From Escherichia phage vB-Eco-KMB23: a stretch of DNA of 64,000 bases. How positions within the stretch are numbered: the stretch's first letter is position 1; each line of letters opens with the position of its first letter. The position numbers and the translations under genes were made by a program. Positions 17,160 through 24,614 of this stretch are shown in pieces. The stretch lies in the sequence record OR525702.1; one strand, 5' to 3'. Below the pieces are notes generated by a model. It was not told where the DNA came from. It searched no databases and worked only from the letters and a program-made list of their open reading frames with translations.

Positions 17160-17196
17160 TAAGACTACTATAACACAACACGAGGGACTTGTAAAC
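17160..17196 (-). promoter_or_regulatory. T4-type early promoter (GTTTAC -35, TATAGT -10) for the alt.-3-like ORF
   Basis: - strand GTTTAC, 18-nt spacer, TG-n-TATAGT; part of a 54-bp cassette identical to 32464..32520. Confidence 0.55.
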
Positions 17197-19253
17197 TACA
17201 TTTTGAACTTTTTAGACATTCCGTTGATGTTAACCAAAGAAGCTAAGATTTGAGAAACTTCGTTTTCCTCTTCTTTTGATTCTTCTACAAGGAATTGATT
17301 AAATCCAGTCATTGGACGAACTTCACCAGTTTCCATTAAATGGTCGCCATCATATACTGATTCTTCTAATTGTTCAGAAGGAGGAACGATTGTGCCTTCG
17401 ATTAAATACTTGTTATAAGCAGTTTCTTTCATCATGTACGTGCTCACTTTATTAATCTTCAGCAAAATTCCACGCGGTAAAATAACTTCAGCTTCTGATG
17501 GAAATCCTGATAAATGACCTGGAACGATAACTTTGATTCGCTCAGCCCCTTTAATTACCATACCTACGCTAGTTTCAGCATCTTCATTAGCATATGCGGA
17601 ATGACTACCCATATGCATTAAATCTTCAGCATCAACTGAACCTTCTCCTTCACCAGAAAATACTGCACTGGAATCATCTAAAGCCATATAGTTTTTACCA
17701 TACTCACCGAAGATATTTGGTTTAAGCGATGTTGATACGAAGTTCTTGAAATAGAACATTTTATTTTCAATATTATGGCGTAAAGTTTTAAAAGTAACTT
17801 CTTGTCCACGATAAAGCGTAGTTCCTGGAGGAAGAACTGATCCTTTGGCGAATGCAGAATCCAGCGTCTCGATGTGTTTAATAGCTCGTTCCATGTATTC
17901 TTCACGAGTAGAATCTGGTTTACCCAAGAGGAACGAGTTCATTTCAACATATGAATCTGCACAATAATCTTCAATTACATCGGACTCAGCCTGAGTTAAT
18001 CCTTTTGGGGGTACTTCAGTACTTGCATATTCATACGCTTGAGAAGCAGACTCATTAATCAATTTATAAATGCCATTCATGACAAATTGAATAATAGCTA
18101 CCTTTTCATCTGGCGTGGCTTTAGAACCTTTAACTAAATCATTGACAATTTTCTTAATAACATCAAAGCTATTAGAAATATTAATGTCAGCAAGATCGCT
18201 CAAAATTTTATCGGTTTTATAATCAAAGAATTCTTTATTCTTTAAATATTCCTGAGAACCTTGATATGTTATATCGCTCTGTAATTTAATAGATGGATCA
18301 CGTAAACGCGCATGGGCCAATGCAATATGATTTCGGAAGCTTTCTAGTTCATAATCGTTAGATTTAAAACGAGAAGCACTCCTCATACCACCGATAGCTC
18401 CTTTGCTGAAGTTTGAACCAATCTGAATAACGCCAGAGTTCATTGGTCCTTCTGCTTTATATACCGGAACTTTAGATTCAAACTCTTGATATTTCTTAGC
18501 GGCGAAGCTATCACCCTGAAGTGAAGCATCAACAGTAGAATATTGAGCTTGTGCTGCTAATCGACGACTAATTTTAGTTTTCTGAATAACAGCTTGATCC
18601 GTGCGCTTATCATTTTCTAAAGCAATAGAAGCAGCAACAGCAACAGCTTTAGGAACAGCATTACCTGTTTTAACATCTACATAAACATCACCAACCTTTG
18701 ATTCAACTTTTGTGAATAACTCAGTTGAAATAGGAGGTACACCTGGAATGTCTTCTAAATTGGCATTTTTACGGTAAACCATAATATATGCATACTTTTT
18801 ATCATAATCCCAGATTTCCTTTAAAAGAACATATCGACCTGCTCCTTTAGTACGTACTAAACGGTCAGCAATAACTTGCATTTGACGAGCAGCGCCATTT
18901 GTTTTACTTTTTAGTACGCGGAATAGGCATGCGTCAATTTTATACTGTTTCATTGTTTGAAGAGCAGTATCAAAAACCGCATTAATGACACCAATTGGAT
19001 TTCCACCCAAGTTTTTAAGTTTAACTAATGATAGTTTCTCATTAACACCTATCATTACGATATGCATCATTTTATCGCCTGGCTTAACGTTTTTATTTGT
19101 ATCACCGCCAGAGGTGTATGTACAAAATCTAAATCCAGGAAGCACGCTTTCTTCACCAGCTTGAATAGCAAAAATTTGAGGTATTTTATGCTTAGGATTT
19201 AAGTTAACAACCGGCGCCGAAGCGCCGTCAAATAATTCTGTAATAAGTTCCAT
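17196..19253 (-). CDS. Alt-like ADP-ribosyltransferase paralogue (685 aa)
   Basis: N-terminal ~230 aa closely parallel the adjacent alt product (MELITELFD...); ART-like motifs LYRGQ, FVSTSL, SEAEVILPRG. Confidence 0.85.
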   Translation of the reverse strand: MELITELFDGASAPVVNLNPKHKIPQIFAIQAGEESVLPGFRFCTYTSGGDTNKNVKPGDKMMHIVMIGVNEKLSLVKLKNLGGNPIGVINAVFDTALQTMKQYKIDACLFRVLKSKTNGAARQMQVIADRLVRTKGAGRYVLLKEIWDYDKKYAYIMVYRKNANLEDIPGVPPISTELFTKVESKVGDVYVDVKTGNAVPKAVAVAASIALENDKRTDQAVIQKTKISRRLAAQAQYSTVDASLQGDSFAAKKYQEFESKVPVYKAEGPMNSGVIQIGSNFSKGAIGGMRSASRFKSNDYELESFRNHIALAHARLRDPSIKLQSDITYQGSQEYLKNKEFFDYKTDKILSDLADINISNSFDVIKKIVNDLVKGSKATPDEKVAIIQFVMNGIYKLINESASQAYEYASTEVPPKGLTQAESDVIEDYCADSYVEMNSFLLGKPDSTREEYMERAIKHIETLDSAFAKGSVLPPGTTLYRGQEVTFKTLRHNIENKMFYFKNFVSTSLKPNIFGEYGKNYMALDDSSAVFSGEGEGSVDAEDLMHMGSHSAYANEDAETSVGMVIKGAERIKVIVPGHLSGFPSEAEVILPRGILLKINKVSTYMMKETAYNKYLIEGTIVPPSEQLEESVYDGDHLMETGEVRPMTGFNQFLVEESKEEENEVSQILASLVNINGMSKKFKM

Positions 19254-19256
19254 GAT

Positions 19257-21353
19257 TTATCCTTGAACGAACTTGTAAGGCATGTTTGTAATATCTATGC
19301 AAGACGCAATAATTCCAAGAGATGATTCTACTTTTTGTTTAACATTTGATGAAACAAATGATGCAAAATCAACTCTGTCTTCTATTTCAATATCACCTGT
19401 CATTGCAACTACTTCACCAGTTTCCATTAGACGATCACCGTCATAAATTACTGATTCGGTGAGTTCTTCCGTAGTCATAACTTCAGCTTGAATGAGTTTT
19501 GTATTATTAGATGTTGTTCCGTCATTATTAGAAGCATCAGTTATTTTATTAACTTTGACCATCAATCCGCGTGGTAGAATAACTTCAGCTTCTGTTGCTA
19601 TTCCGAGACTTCCTGGATATACAACATTAACTTTATGAGCTCCATCAATTGCCCATCCTATTTGAACTTTAACGTATTCAGGATTTTCTTTATACGCTCT
19701 TATTTCGTTTGGATTAATAGTTATTCCTTCTTCATTTTTATCAACTGTCAATTCATTACGAGCTTCTGGTTCTAAAAGACCAATACCAGCATGTGTAATT
19801 CCAAAACGTCCAAAAATGATAGGAGTTAAAGAAGTAGATACAAAATTTCTGAAATAGAATACTTTATTTTTAACTAGTGCTTCGTATATAGGAGCAGTCA
19901 TACTTTGAGCACGATAAACTGTAATGCCTTCTGGTATACGGTCACCATTTTCAAAAGCTGAATCTAAGTTATTTATAGCAGATTCAATTTCTTTTTCACT
20001 CATTACATCATATCGTTCTGGATTGTAGCGTCCTAAAAGAAGATTATTGATGTCAGTATATCCTGAACCACAATACTCTCTAATACCACGCTTTTGTGAT
20101 GGAGTATATTTAGAACCATCACGAGCAATAGTAATATCAATCATTGGACCTGCACCAATTCCAGAAAAGCTATAAATCATTCGTTTGAGGAATTTAGTTT
20201 TTGCTGCGTTCCAGGAATTTTTAGTTATTTCTTCCCAGACTTCATCTGACTGCCCTTTACGAGTTTTATTATGTTTATCAAGCCAATTATCTTTATATTC
20301 TTCAAAGAATTGATTAACAGCTGCTGCGTATTTCTCTAAACATTTTATTGAAGTAGTTGGTTCATTTTTAATCGCATTAAGAATTACATCTTTAATTTTT
20401 TCAGAAACTTCATTAACCTCACTTTTTGAAAAGAATTTATAGTCATAATGAAGTTCATCTGCAGTTCCTTCAGCAATAATTTTTGCTGCTTTAGTTTTAG
20501 AAGCCAATGAATTAATTCCAAGTTTCATTTCTTCTGCTTCGGGAATTAAAGGAGCGGTAGCAGGTTTATTGAAATTAGCTGCGGTAGATTCATACTTCTG
20601 GAATAATTCACTTTCAAATCTAGAAGATTCTAATGATTGACTTTGTGCAATTGCTCTACGGGAAATTTTAACTTTAACGATTACAGCTTGGTCAGAACGT
20701 TTATCATTTTCTTGCGCAATAGATGCAGCAATTGCCTCATTTTTAGTTACTTGAGCTCCAGTATCTTTATTGATATAAACATCACCGACCTTCGATTCAA
20801 CTTTAGTAAAGAGCTCGGTACTAATTTCCGGAACTCCTGGAATGTCTTCTAGTGATACATTTTTGCGATGTATAAGAATATATGCATACTTTTTATCGTA
20901 ATCCCAGAGTTCCTTAAGAAGGACGTATCTGCCACCTGAACGACTGCGGATAAGTCTATCAGCAATAAGTTGAATTTGACGAGCTTGACCAGCAGTTTTA
21001 GACTTAAGAATACGGAGCATACAGGCATCAATTTTATACTGACGCATCGTCTGCATCGCAACAGTAAAAACTGAATTGATGTAATTAATTGGGCTTGGAC
21101 CGAGACCTTTTAATTTAGCAATTGAACCTTTAGCAGTTAATGTAAAAGGAACAATATGCATCATTTTATCGCCCATCTTTAAATCGCGATTAGTATCACC
21201 TCCAGATGTATAGGTACATAAACGAAAGCCTGGTTGTTCAATTGCGTCATCAACATGAACTGAAAAAATTTGTGGTATTTTCTTCTTTGGATTTAAGTTT
21301 GTAATCGGAAGAGTAGTATCTTCGTCAAATAATTCTGTAATGAGTTCCATCAT
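19257..21353 (-). CDS. alt: Alt ADP-ribosyltransferase, head-packaged (698 aa)
   Basis: Matches T4 Alt as recalled; N-terminal MELITE capsid-targeting region; motifs VYRAQ, FVSTSL, TEAEVILPRG; late promoter upstream. Confidence 0.92.
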   Translation of the reverse strand: MMELITELFDEDTTLPITNLNPKKKIPQIFSVHVDDAIEQPGFRLCTYTSGGDTNRDLKMGDKMMHIVPFTLTAKGSIAKLKGLGPSPINYINSVFTVAMQTMRQYKIDACMLRILKSKTAGQARQIQLIADRLIRSRSGGRYVLLKELWDYDKKYAYILIHRKNVSLEDIPGVPEISTELFTKVESKVGDVYINKDTGAQVTKNEAIAASIAQENDKRSDQAVIVKVKISRRAIAQSQSLESSRFESELFQKYESTAANFNKPATAPLIPEAEEMKLGINSLASKTKAAKIIAEGTADELHYDYKFFSKSEVNEVSEKIKDVILNAIKNEPTTSIKCLEKYAAAVNQFFEEYKDNWLDKHNKTRKGQSDEVWEEITKNSWNAAKTKFLKRMIYSFSGIGAGPMIDITIARDGSKYTPSQKRGIREYCGSGYTDINNLLLGRYNPERYDVMSEKEIESAINNLDSAFENGDRIPEGITVYRAQSMTAPIYEALVKNKVFYFRNFVSTSLTPIIFGRFGITHAGIGLLEPEARNELTVDKNEEGITINPNEIRAYKENPEYVKVQIGWAIDGAHKVNVVYPGSLGIATEAEVILPRGLMVKVNKITDASNNDGTTSNNTKLIQAEVMTTEELTESVIYDGDRLMETGEVVAMTGDIEIEDRVDFASFVSSNVKQKVESSLGIIASCIDITNMPYKFVQG

Positions 21354-21402: not shown

Positions 21403-21591
21403 TTAATAATCTATTGGTAAGAGAGTACGATATATTTCAAACTTTGGACCTTTTTCATAAGCATCAAATGTTTCTGTGAATTTATTATAAGCATATGCAT
21501 CTATAAATTCAATCATAATTTGTGATACAGAAGTAGAAACATCTCCACCTTCTTTTTGAGCAACGACAATTGTTTCTAAGTAAGCTTTCAT
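21403..21591 (-). CDS. hypothetical small protein (62 aa) coupled to the gene 30 stop
   Basis: ATG overlaps the gene 30 stop (ATGA); acidic protein; no recognisable motif. Confidence 0.5.
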   Translation of the reverse strand: MKAYLETIVVAQKEGGDVSTSVSQIMIEFIDAYAYNKFTETFDAYEKGPKFEIYRTLLPIDY

Positions 21592-23051
21592 AGACCAGTT
21601 ACCTCATGAAAATCACCAAATACATCCTCGAATGTATTAGCTTTAGTTTTATCTTCACGTAAACGAATCGCAATTGGAAGAAATAATTTTACATAATCGG
21701 TGCGGCCATCAGATTTTAGCCAACCGTTGCATTCGCACTCTAGAATTTTTCCAATATAATAATTTTGGTTTTCCATAATGCGAGTACGGTCAAGTTCATG
21801 TGATTTTACACCGGCTTTATCTTTTAAGCCTGAACCAGCATTTACTTTAATTTTTCCACACTCTGATTCAAGAATAAATCCACCTGCTTTAGTAGGGTCT
21901 TTACGGTGAGGATAAATTCCTACAATTTTTAAATCAACATCAATTACTTCTTTAAATTTATAGAGATTTTTTGAACGAGCATTTTCCCACAATCCATCGG
22001 TATTTTTGAGAATAATACCTTCAAGACCTTGGTCAATATATTTTTTATAAATTACCTTAGCTTCATCTAGGTTATTTACTACCTGGTTTTCAATTAAAAT
22101 TACTTTATCATAGCCTGATGTCATTTGTTCTAGTTTAGAAAAACGTACATCATATTTTAAACGAAACGCCGGAAGACCATATATTTCTACTAATGGAACA
22201 TAGTCCCAGACCTGAAACTTCATGCATTGTGCTTCTTTTTCAGAAATGGTTCCCTTTAAAGATTTATTAGCGATTCCATTAGAAGTAGTACGTGATTCAG
22301 CTACTTCAGCGAATTCTTTAGCTTTACTAATTTCAGGATAAGCATCAAAAAGAAAATCTAGGCCTTCTGGTTCCTTTTCAACTTGCTCATGGTATACCAA
22401 TTCGCCATCAATTAACACACCTTCTGGATGAATCTGGCGGGCTTCAGCGGTCATTTTGATTAACTCTTCTTTAAGAAGATCTAATCCTAGATATTCATTA
22501 CCAGCTCGTGATAAAAGACGAACATCATCTAATTCATCACCTCTGACTTCAGCAAAGCACCGAGCTCCATCAGCTTTTAATTGGGCAAAGGCTGGAAATT
22601 TGATATTCTTATTAATGCCTTTTTCATCATAAGAACTTGCCAGCATTTGAGGTTGTTCAGGAATTAAACCTGGCCAAACTTTGTTTGCAATAGATACTGA
22701 AGCACCGCATTCAAGGTCTCGCATCATCACTCGACGCAAAACTTCAACATCATCTTTTTTACCATCGGTGATATATCCAATTAATTCCTCAATTGCCGCA
22801 TTTCCAGTCAATTTCCGAGTAGCTAACGTGAATTCAATGAAGTCAAGCATATCGGTAATAGTCAGCATCCCAAAACTCTGGGTAGCAATACCGGGTTTAG
22901 GCCATTTCTTTATATAATACTGTAACCCACGAGAATAAGTCAGACGATATACTCGTTTGAGCAATTCATTATCTTTATTCTTTTCAAGAATTGCTTGCTT
23001 CTGCTTAGTTGAACCAATAGATGCTATTTCGTTCAGAATTTTAAGAATCAT
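21588..23051 (-). CDS. 30: ATP-dependent DNA ligase gp30 (487 aa)
   Basis: 487 aa as in T4; adenylation motif KADGAR (LKADGARCFAEV). Confidence 0.96.
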   Translation of the reverse strand: MILKILNEIASIGSTKQKQAILEKNKDNELLKRVYRLTYSRGLQYYIKKWPKPGIATQSFGMLTITDMLDFIEFTLATRKLTGNAAIEELIGYITDGKKDDVEVLRRVMMRDLECGASVSIANKVWPGLIPEQPQMLASSYDEKGINKNIKFPAFAQLKADGARCFAEVRGDELDDVRLLSRAGNEYLGLDLLKEELIKMTAEARQIHPEGVLIDGELVYHEQVEKEPEGLDFLFDAYPEISKAKEFAEVAESRTTSNGIANKSLKGTISEKEAQCMKFQVWDYVPLVEIYGLPAFRLKYDVRFSKLEQMTSGYDKVILIENQVVNNLDEAKVIYKKYIDQGLEGIILKNTDGLWENARSKNLYKFKEVIDVDLKIVGIYPHRKDPTKAGGFILESECGKIKVNAGSGLKDKAGVKSHELDRTRIMENQNYYIGKILECECNGWLKSDGRTDYVKLFLPIAIRLREDKTKANTFEDVFGDFHEVTGL

Positions 23052-23317
23052 TGTTCATCCTTTAGAGTTTGGTTTACAGCTCTATTATAAATCAATTCAT
23101 CATTAAGCTCAGTCAAAGACCTATGGTACGTGGTTCTAACTTTATTTCCTTGCATCCAATGCTTGACGTAAATGAAACCTTGCTCTACACATTTTTTAAA
23201 AATTCGTTCGTCTTTTTGAGCTCGGAATTCTGGATTGCATCTAAAAAATTGATTTACGTGACCGTAATCACGTGTAGTATTACCTTCATTTTCATAAATA
23301 GTGTGAACAACAAACAT
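23048..23317 (-). CDS. hypothetical protein (30.1 position, 89 aa)
   Basis: ORF overlapping the gene 30 start by 4 nt. Confidence 0.6.
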   Translation of the reverse strand: MFVVHTIYENEGNTTRDYGHVNQFFRCNPEFRAQKDERIFKKCVEQGFIYVKHWMQGNKVRTTYHRSLTELNDELIYNRAVNQTLKDEQ

Positions 23318-24153
23318 TAGAATGCTCCTTGGAAAATATTATCACCACTAGTAGGTCTATTATACAAATACTCTATACCACCGGGTTTAATATAGTTCCA
23401 TGTCTGAAACGGATGCGTCTGATATGGATGATATGGATTATAAGGATTAAATCCAGGAGTTCTCCAGGTAGTGTTCCAACGAAAAGAATCATTTTTAATC
23501 ATCTTTTCAATTACATCTTTTATAGCTTTTTCACTATCAAAACTTTCTTTATTTTCCTTCGGTGAAAAAAGCTTATTCTCTACATCGTTCCATGTATAAA
23601 CTCGCTGAGCGGTTTTTGGAATACTGTCACGTTCCCCTCGAGCCATCCAATACACAGGAACACGTAATATTTCACTCGCATGATCGCAGTGGTGAGCGAG
23701 ATCGTCAATATAACAAATTACGTTATATTTCTCTTTTGCCTTTTTGAACAACTCTTCTTTTGAAGAATCATGACCACACATCATTACTTCTGAGAAGGCA
23801 CCAGGAAAAAGAGCATTCAAATTAAATTGACGATTCAACAGAGCGTCAATAGAATCACCCAATGCTGTAACAGCTACAAAATTATAATCTTCTTTTAATT
23901 TGTTAATTACACACAGAGCATCTTTATATGGAGACAAGTAACGAATAAAATCTGATCGATTGTATTTTTCAATTAGCTTAACGCCAAGTTCTTCATCACA
24001 GTTAAAGAGTTTACCAGGAGAAATAAATTTCTCATCCTGGATCATTTTTAAAATATGTTCTAACGGAAGATTATATTTCTGAGCAAAATAAGGAAGGCCT
24101 GATTGCCAGCTTAAACATACTCCATCAATATCAGTTAAAATAGTAAGCTTCAT
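23317..24153 (-). CDS. HAD-superfamily-like hydrolase (30.2 position, 278 aa)
   Basis: N-terminal ILTDIDGV fits HAD motif I (DxDG); C-terminal Pro/Tyr-rich tail. Confidence 0.6.
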   Translation of the reverse strand: MKLTILTDIDGVCLSWQSGLPYFAQKYNLPLEHILKMIQDEKFISPGKLFNCDEELGVKLIEKYNRSDFIRYLSPYKDALCVINKLKEDYNFVAVTALGDSIDALLNRQFNLNALFPGAFSEVMMCGHDSSKEELFKKAKEKYNVICYIDDLAHHCDHASEILRVPVYWMARGERDSIPKTAQRVYTWNDVENKLFSPKENKESFDSEKAIKDVIEKMIKNDSFRWNTTWRTPGFNPYNPYHPYQTHPFQTWNYIKPGGIEYLYNRPTSGDNIFQGAF

Positions 24154-24614
24154 AGAGAGTCTCTTAATAGGTTTAACACATCAATAAATTCAGCTTCGGT
24201 TAGTATTGTATCATCTTTTGTTAGACCACTAGCCATGCTGTGCTTCAAAACTTTTCCTTTCGAGGCTTGTAATGCATCACGAAAGCCCCTGTTTTGGATC
24301 GCTGCTTCAAAATATGCATTTGTGTATAATTCTTTCCACGCTGGGGAGTATCTTGAAAACGGAACTCCAAGCCAGAAGAGGGTCCCACGGTCCTGAGCTC
24401 TTGCATAAGACCTTCCAGCTTGTTGGGCGGCAAGACCGGATAACCCAAATATACGACGTTGTTGTTCAACATTTTTCACCTTGCACCCTTGGAGGAATCC
24501 TTCAAGACCTCCAAATTGAATACCATCCATAACGAAAGGCCATTGGGCGAAATTACTTAATGCACATGATGGCCACCTAAAATTGCTTCTAATCTCTAAC
24601 TCAGACATTTTCAA
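24150..24614 (-). CDS. NADAR/YbiA-like (DUF1768-like) protein (30.3 position, 154 aa)
   Basis: LSNFAQWPFVMDGIQFGGLEGFLQGCK resembles the YbiA/NADAR N-terminal motif (FSNFAAWP..DG....E.FQ..K); assignment by eye only. Confidence 0.5.
   Translation of the reverse strand: MKMSELEIRSNFRWPSCALSNFAQWPFVMDGIQFGGLEGFLQGCKVKNVEQQRRIFGLSGLAAQQAGRSYARAQDRGTLFWLGVPFSRYSPAWKELYTNAYFEAAIQNRGFRDALQASKGKVLKHSMASGLTKDDTILTEAEFIDVLNLLRDSL

Follow-up and report, generated by a model that had tools for sequence, protein, structure and literature searches.

The two adjoining minus-strand genes at positions 23317 to 24614 of the window, i.e. the whole 64,000-nucleotide stretch of Escherichia phage vB-Eco-KMB23 that was analysed (sequence record OR525702.1), very probably encode two separate enzymes and not parts of an ADP-ribose module. 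Gene 30.3 would be adfN, the gene of a NADAR-fold enzyme that erases ADP-ribose from DNA, while gene 30.2 would encode a HAD phosphomonoesterase linked to the DNA ligase gene. The initial annotation, made by eye from the sequence, had placed ORFs of 278 aa and 154 aa in this region and a ligase gene and two Alt genes close by. The ORFs (23317..24153 and 24150..24614, respectively, both on the minus strand), the motif strings quoted from both of them, and the three neighbouring genes are all present, and both Alt genes are full length.

By nucleotide comparison the window belongs to a T4-like phage with about 98% DNA identity to T4. The 1.9 kb around the two genes was 98–99% identical to many Tequatrovirus genomes. 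Identity to T4T was 97.9% over this stretch, and the counterparts there are annotated as 30.1, 30.2, 30.3, 30.3’, 30.4 and DNA ligase. At least 80% of the same stretch was covered by 495 phage records. Because of these records and of strong matches of the gene products to Pfam PF08010 (E 5e-70) and PHROG 420 (E 1e-92), we conclude that both ORFs are genuine genes and not chance ORFs. The order alt–alt.1–30–30.1–30.2–30.3–30.4 and onward was identical in the window and T4. Successive genes overlap by 8 nt (30.4/30.3, ATGTCTGA), 4 nt (30.3/30.2, ATGA), 1 nt (30.2/30.1, TAATG) and 4 nt (30.1/30). A consensus scan of 21–28 kb found no excess of promoter- or terminator-like sites over shuffled sequence, and no such site splitting the run from 30.4 to 30. 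A 75-aa out-of-frame ORF within adfN (24245..24472, minus strand) corresponds to the T4 annotation 30.3’. The two alt paralogues of the window are intact and in tandem (685 and 698 aa), whereas the second copy of T4 has decayed into alt.-1 and alt.-2.

Table 1. Genes and predicted functional residues in the window. A1 and A2 are alignments of 40 relatives each of gp30.2 and gp30.3, respectively.
Feature	Position	Strand	Remarks
Alt paralogue	17196..19253	-	Full length
Alt paralogue	19257..21353	-	Full length
Gene 30, ATP-dependent DNA ligase	21588..23051	-	Conserved downstream neighbour of 30.2
T4 gene 30.1 (DUF3045)	23048..23317	-	Between 30.2 and the ligase gene; Pfam PF11243, E 2.9e-64
T4 gene 30.2, 278 aa	23317..24153	-	Predicted capped HAD-superfamily phosphatase; core about residues 1-200; C-terminal tail disordered, variable
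HAD motif IV, D150-D151	23701..23706	-	Both invariant in A1; end of strand 145-150
HAD motif III, K132	23758..23760	-	Invariant in A1; probable motif III, assigned from position
HAD motif II, T96	23866..23868	-	At least 90% conserved in A1; end of model strand 90-96
HAD motif I, D8-I-D10 (then G-V)	24124..24132	-	Predicted nucleophile and acid/base Asp; both Asp invariant in A1
adfN (T4 gene 30.3), 152 aa	24150..24608	-	Predicted NADAR-fold DNA ADP-ribosylglycohydrolase, anti-DarTG1 factor
H123 of AdfN	24240..24242	-	Codon CAC; replaces the YbiA-type Glu; invariant in A2; published phage-NADAR signature
K43, phosphate-binding catalytic Lys of AdfN	24480..24482	-	Codon AAG; at least 90% conserved in A2; K43A impaired (published)
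E36, catalytic Glu of AdfN	24501..24503	-	Codon GAA; invariant in A2; E36A impaired (published); equivalent to E43 of PnNADAR
T4 gene 30.4, 68 aa	24601..24807	-	PHROG 2042, E 4e-35; candidate AdfN helper

The mechanically called 154-aa ORF begins with a TTG at 24614, while the T4 annotation places the start at an ATG two codons further on (24608), yielding 152 aa. We favour the ATG because only this start gives the published numbering of E36 and K43. The protein, which contains LSNFAQWPFVMDGIQFGGLEGFLQGCK, is identical to T4 gp30.3 at 150 of 152 residues and matched the whole of the Pfam Phage_30_3 profile (PF08010; 234 bits, cut-off 36, profile positions 1–138 of 138). Pfam NADAR (PF08719) did not match the window protein at E ≤ 1; however, it matched 17 of 40 members of the gp30.3 family (best E 1.5e-7). 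A search of the PDB with the family profile found YbiA (E 0.0016), and several metagenomic relatives are labelled YbiA/DUF1768 by their source. Direct sequence searches of the PDB with gp30.3 or gp30.2 gave only noise or marginal matches. An AlphaFold2 model of gp30.3 built on 40 relatives (pLDDT 93.3) has the NADAR alpha+beta fold, and its structural matches were the three NADAR structures only. The C-terminus is complete, ending in LNLLRDSL as in T4, with a helix at residues 138–151 in the model.

These family matches, the model and the published activity of gp30.3 bear out the NADAR assignment that had been made by eye for the shorter ORF. The profile search proposed as its check had a divided outcome: neither protein of the window matched a Pfam NADAR or HAD profile, whereas relatives of gp30.3 matched NADAR and relatives of gp30.2 reached HAD profiles below threshold.

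The function of gp30.3 is already known and has been proven experimentally in T4. The reversal of guanine ADP-ribosylation that the initial annotation had associated with NADAR proteins is published for this very protein, as T4 gp30.3 takes ADP-ribose off guanine in vitro, although it did not shield uninfected cells from DarT1 (Toxins 2024, PMC11125620). Johannesman et al. [quoted passage not shown] In the same study AdfN was impaired by E36A, by K43A and by an RB69-like truncation of the C-terminus. In a T4 transposon screen (HIDEN-SEQ), insertions in 30.3 were lost under DarTG1. The catalytic residues of PnNADAR are E43, K50 and E125, and the third position is a His in phage NADARs (Schuller et al. 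2023).

The mechanism demonstrated by experiment for T4 AdfN, a protein 99% identical to that of the window, would apply here by orthology. During infection the host toxin DarT1 would ADP-ribosylate guanines of the phage DNA and so block replication. AdfN, a stand-alone NADAR-fold N-glycohydrolase, would bind the ADP-ribose, contacting the phosphates through K43 and the distal ribose through E36 and H123. Hydrolysis of the guanine–ribose bond would then restore replicable DNA and neutralize the DarTG1 defence. Nothing in the evidence contradicts the assignment of the window gene as adfN, and this phage is expected to resist DarTG1. The gene adds nothing new in this respect; it is a phage-borne, orphan, antitoxin-like enzyme predicted to erase a DNA modification inflicted by a defence system, and thus a textbook example in the making.

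Full activity of AdfN-T4 was seen only in T-even infection, which implies a further phage factor (Johannesman et al. 2025, PMC11825919), and the mechanism is therefore incomplete. Only two T4 genes were significant under DarTG1 in the HIDEN-SEQ supplement, 30.3 (log2FC −7.25, adjusted p 0) and 30.4 (log2FC −1.79, adjusted p 0.014). The published transposon data thus point weakly towards gp30.4, and away from gp30.2, as a helper of AdfN. We found no mention of 30.4 in the published DarTG1 and AdfN work that we examined. In 13 of 77 NADAR loci, all 13 of T-even type, adfN was immediately preceded by a gp30.4 homologue that overlapped it by the same 8 nt; the remaining NADARs had unrelated upstream genes. 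We nevertheless regard it as unlikely that gp30.4, and not gp30.2, is the T-even-specific factor required for full AdfN-T4 activity. More probably, the 30.4 signal stems from insertions that acted on adfN in a polar manner or through translational coupling. We also considered gp30.4 as a split-off form of the N-terminal extension of DarG1 NADARs and rejected it on sequence grounds, as the gp30.4 profile matched none of the PDB sequences, 8bat included.

The longer ORF, which begins with MKLTILTDIDGV, encodes a protein identical to T4 gp30.2 at 272 of 278 residues and assigned to PHROG 420, a family of unknown function. Curated HAD profiles (Pfam, NCBIfam) did not match gp30.2 of the window, and no curated NT5C model reached threshold. 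Among 40 relatives, sub-threshold matches were obtained to PF00702 (HAD; 11 relatives, best E 3.5e-4), NT5C (8) and HAD_2 (6). A few relatives are labelled by their source as HAD hydrolase, FMN phosphatase or 5’(3’)-deoxyribonucleotidase. The AlphaFold2 model was confident for the core, with block-mean pLDDT of at least 90 for residues 1–190 and 83 for residues 191–200, and disordered beyond about residue 225. The core has the Rossmann-like HAD fold, and all four HAD motifs (I, DxDx[TV]; II, T/S; III, K/R; IV, DD or DxxxD) were found and are conserved in the 40 relatives (Table 1), so that the HAD assignment in the initial annotation, made from the DxDG motif, stands.

Between motifs I and II the model has a helical insert of 85 residues, i.e. 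a cap, in which many residues are invariant among the 40 relatives, including W16, F43, F50, Y64, N65 and Y72. HMMER aligned TDIDGVCLSW of gp30.2 with the catalytic N/D-M-D-G-V-L-A-D-F of the deoxyribonucleotidase 2jao, so that D8 and D10 fall on the catalytic N/D-x-D and W16 is placed opposite a Phe. In the mdN and cdN structures this Phe, which follows motif I, stacks on the base.

Relatives of gp30.2 were collected by an exhaustive profile search (E ≤ 0.001), which gave 1182 representatives. The best 150 of these are mostly stand-alone proteins of about 200 aa. No fusion partner was found by Pfam among the 1182; PHROGs revealed one fusion, P0248 (591 aa), in which a match to PHROG 24943 (‘DNA polymerase’, E 1.7e-34) is joined to a gp30.2-like HAD domain, a single case that could be a gene-calling artefact. 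The disordered, variable tail, absent from many homologues, contains a short motif, GGIEYLYNRPT, at residues 258–268 of the window protein (23350..23382, minus strand). Of 52 long-tailed homologues, 16 have the motif, G(T)G-[IVL]-E-Y-L..QPT, at a distance of 18–22 residues from the C-terminus; it is reminiscent of T4 clamp-binding peptides and may be a docking peptide.

Gene neighbourhoods were compared in 78 viral loci with a relative of gp30.2 and in 80 viral loci with a gp30.3-family NADAR, the HAD gene being sought within 6 kb of the latter. The HAD gene was directly followed by the ligase gene in 72 of the 78 loci, even where ligase identity was down to 35–40%, while only 37 had a NADAR upstream of the HAD gene at a distance of about 1.5 kb or less. 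Starting from the NADAR, a HAD gene was found within 6 kb in just 19 of the 80 loci. In at least nine T4-like genomes the NADAR and the HAD–ligase pair were about 50–60 kb apart (loci L106, L110, L112, L134, L136, L145, L146, L157 and L158 versus L068, L037, L016, L073, L022, L035, L028, L021 and L019; L016 and L112, for example, are both on contig 2974666281), and the genes upstream of these separated NADARs differ. The most distant HAD relatives (L075 and L077) have a clamp-loader-like AAA protein and PhoH nearby and were uninformative. From these counts and separations we conclude that, as far as gene order can tell, the HAD gene is stably partnered by the ligase gene, and the NADAR is the mobile element of the neighbourhood. 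The distance of the NADAR from the 30.2–ligase pair in several genomes suggests that adfN moved, or was separately acquired, within Straboviridae. The linkage of the HAD and ligase genes may be functional or may be mere conserved gene order of T4-like phages.

We have high confidence in HAD chemistry for gp30.2 and moderate confidence in nucleotidase specificity. The protein would be an Mg-dependent HAD phosphomonoesterase with a C1-type helical cap, its closest likeness being the 5’(3’)-deoxyribonucleotidases, and would remove phosphate from a small, nucleotide-like molecule, with (d)NMPs as the probable substrates. We favour this substrate class because of the HAD motifs, the cap, the alignment with 2jao, the viral fold neighbours, which beyond orthologues are mostly annotated as 5’ nucleotidase or nucleotidase, and the precedent of a phage enzyme with a defined role, PBS1 Dtm, an NT5C-family dTMP phosphatase. 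The choice of a nucleotidase is a guess from fold similarity and one conserved aromatic, W16, facing the Phe of 2jao. In the phage the enzyme may have an accessory function in nucleotide or DNA metabolism tied to the ligase gene. A role tied to the T4-specific base replacement is unlikely, to judge from the distribution of homologues alone, because at least 72 related viral loci have one. We found no biochemical data on gp30.2 in the literature, and the name ‘gp30.2’ occurred in none of the papers searched in full text. In T4 the gene is non-essential on K-12, with 72 of 72 sites hit, and insertions had little effect in LB versus M9 (log2FC −0.10, p 0.61) or on one clinical isolate (log2FC −0.21, p 0.32; HIDEN-SEQ supplement). 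No mutant phenotype was thus seen in LB, M9, DarTG1 or the one clinical isolate.

The position of the HAD gene immediately before the ligase gene, distant T4-like phages included, would also be compatible with a role as DNA-end 3’-phosphatase, in which gp30.2 would resemble the HAD phosphatase domain of polynucleotide kinase and heal ends in partnership with the ligase. The weak PHROG match of gp30.2 to polynucleotide kinase (E 0.0019) and the one homologue fused to a region that matches a PHROG family labelled ‘DNA polymerase’ point in the same direction. We consider this role quite unlikely, as T4 already has the PseT 3’-phosphatase and the gp30.2 model carries the 85-residue helical cap with its many invariant residues. 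Capped (C1) HAD enzymes act on small substrates, while HAD phosphatases of DNA or proteins are capless. A small-nucleotide phosphomonoesterase is the reading that we prefer for gp30.2, i.e. a predicted capped HAD phosphatase that travels with the ligase gene and not with adfN.

According to the initial annotation, 30.3 and 30.2 could belong with the two Alt ADP-ribosyltransferases to a single module for ADP-ribose handling or counter-defence. In such a module the HAD enzyme might, for example, process the ADP-ribose freed by AdfN or potentiate AdfN. The ATGA overlap of the 30.3 stop and the 30.2 start suggests translational coupling of the two genes, the NADAR does lie close upstream in 37 of the 78 HAD loci, AdfN-T4 does require a further T-even factor, and T4-like NADARs are expressed early alongside ADP-ribosyltransferases (Iyer et al.). 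However, insertions in T4 30.2 (log2FC −0.12, p 0.61) and alt (log2FC −0.01, p 0.97) had no effect under DarTG1, the condition under which those in 30.3 were lost (HIDEN-SEQ supplement). Moreover, 61 of the 80 NADAR loci have no HAD gene nearby, and several T4-like genomes carry the NADAR far from the HAD–ligase pair. The targets differ as well. Alt ADP-ribosylates proteins of the host. For NADARs, specificity for guanine adducts has been reported (PMC11825919, PMC11125620). The module is thus very improbable and largely refuted: the genes are not co-inherited, and a shared genetic requirement was not found. On the synteny and the T4 transposon data we also rejected gp30.2 as a helper of AdfN or as an ADP-ribose-processing partner. 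We return to two separate enzymes, which in T-even phages would simply be encoded side by side in the packed early run 30.4–30.3–30.2–30.1–30, the Alt ADP-ribosyltransferases having no apparent part in the task of AdfN.

Finally, it is extremely improbable that AdfN here mainly degrades soluble ADP-ribose-derived signals or intermediates of the riboflavin pathway, as YbiA-like enzymes would, and not DNA adducts: Iyer et al. (2022) did propose a preference of phage NADARs for ADP-ribose derivatives of low molecular weight, but such a main role is already contradicted by the direct published evidence of ADP-ribose removal from DNA and by the genetic data on the T4 protein, which is 99% identical and is required specifically under DarTG1, and a soluble substrate is possible as a secondary role.

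AdfN of the window is the orthologue of T4 AdfN: the two proteins are equally long, both are encoded between 30.4 and 30.2, and they share the catalytic residues E36, K43 and H123. Two conservative exchanges separate them, with R107 instead of K and M125 instead of I in the window protein, and M125 is the consensus residue of the family. The RB69 allele is truncated by 15 residues and inactive (published), whereas AdfN of the window is full length. The NADAR fold is common to AdfN, to the DarG1-type antitoxins associated with DarT1 (BC4488 subfamily; PDB 8bat) and to YbiA (PDB 2b3w), as are the Glu/Lys catalytic pair and guanine-ADP-ribose hydrolysis. AdfN has a His in the last strand where DarG1-type and YbiA NADARs have Asp or Glu, and lacks the N-terminal extension of DarG1. 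Unlike DarG1 it is not paired with any DarT toxin, and unlike DarG1-type NADARs it leaves uninfected cells exposed to the toxicity of DarT1 (published). The closest known systems for gp30.2 are the 5’(3’)-deoxyribonucleotidases (NT5C, PF06941; PDB 3bwv, 2jao and 6g2n) and PBS1 Dtm, with which it shares the capped HAD fold, the DxD nucleophile motif, a DD motif IV and an aromatic residue, W16, which falls opposite the Phe after motif I. It differs from them in that identity is only about 20%, with HMM matches below threshold, and in its additional disordered tail of about 80 residues.
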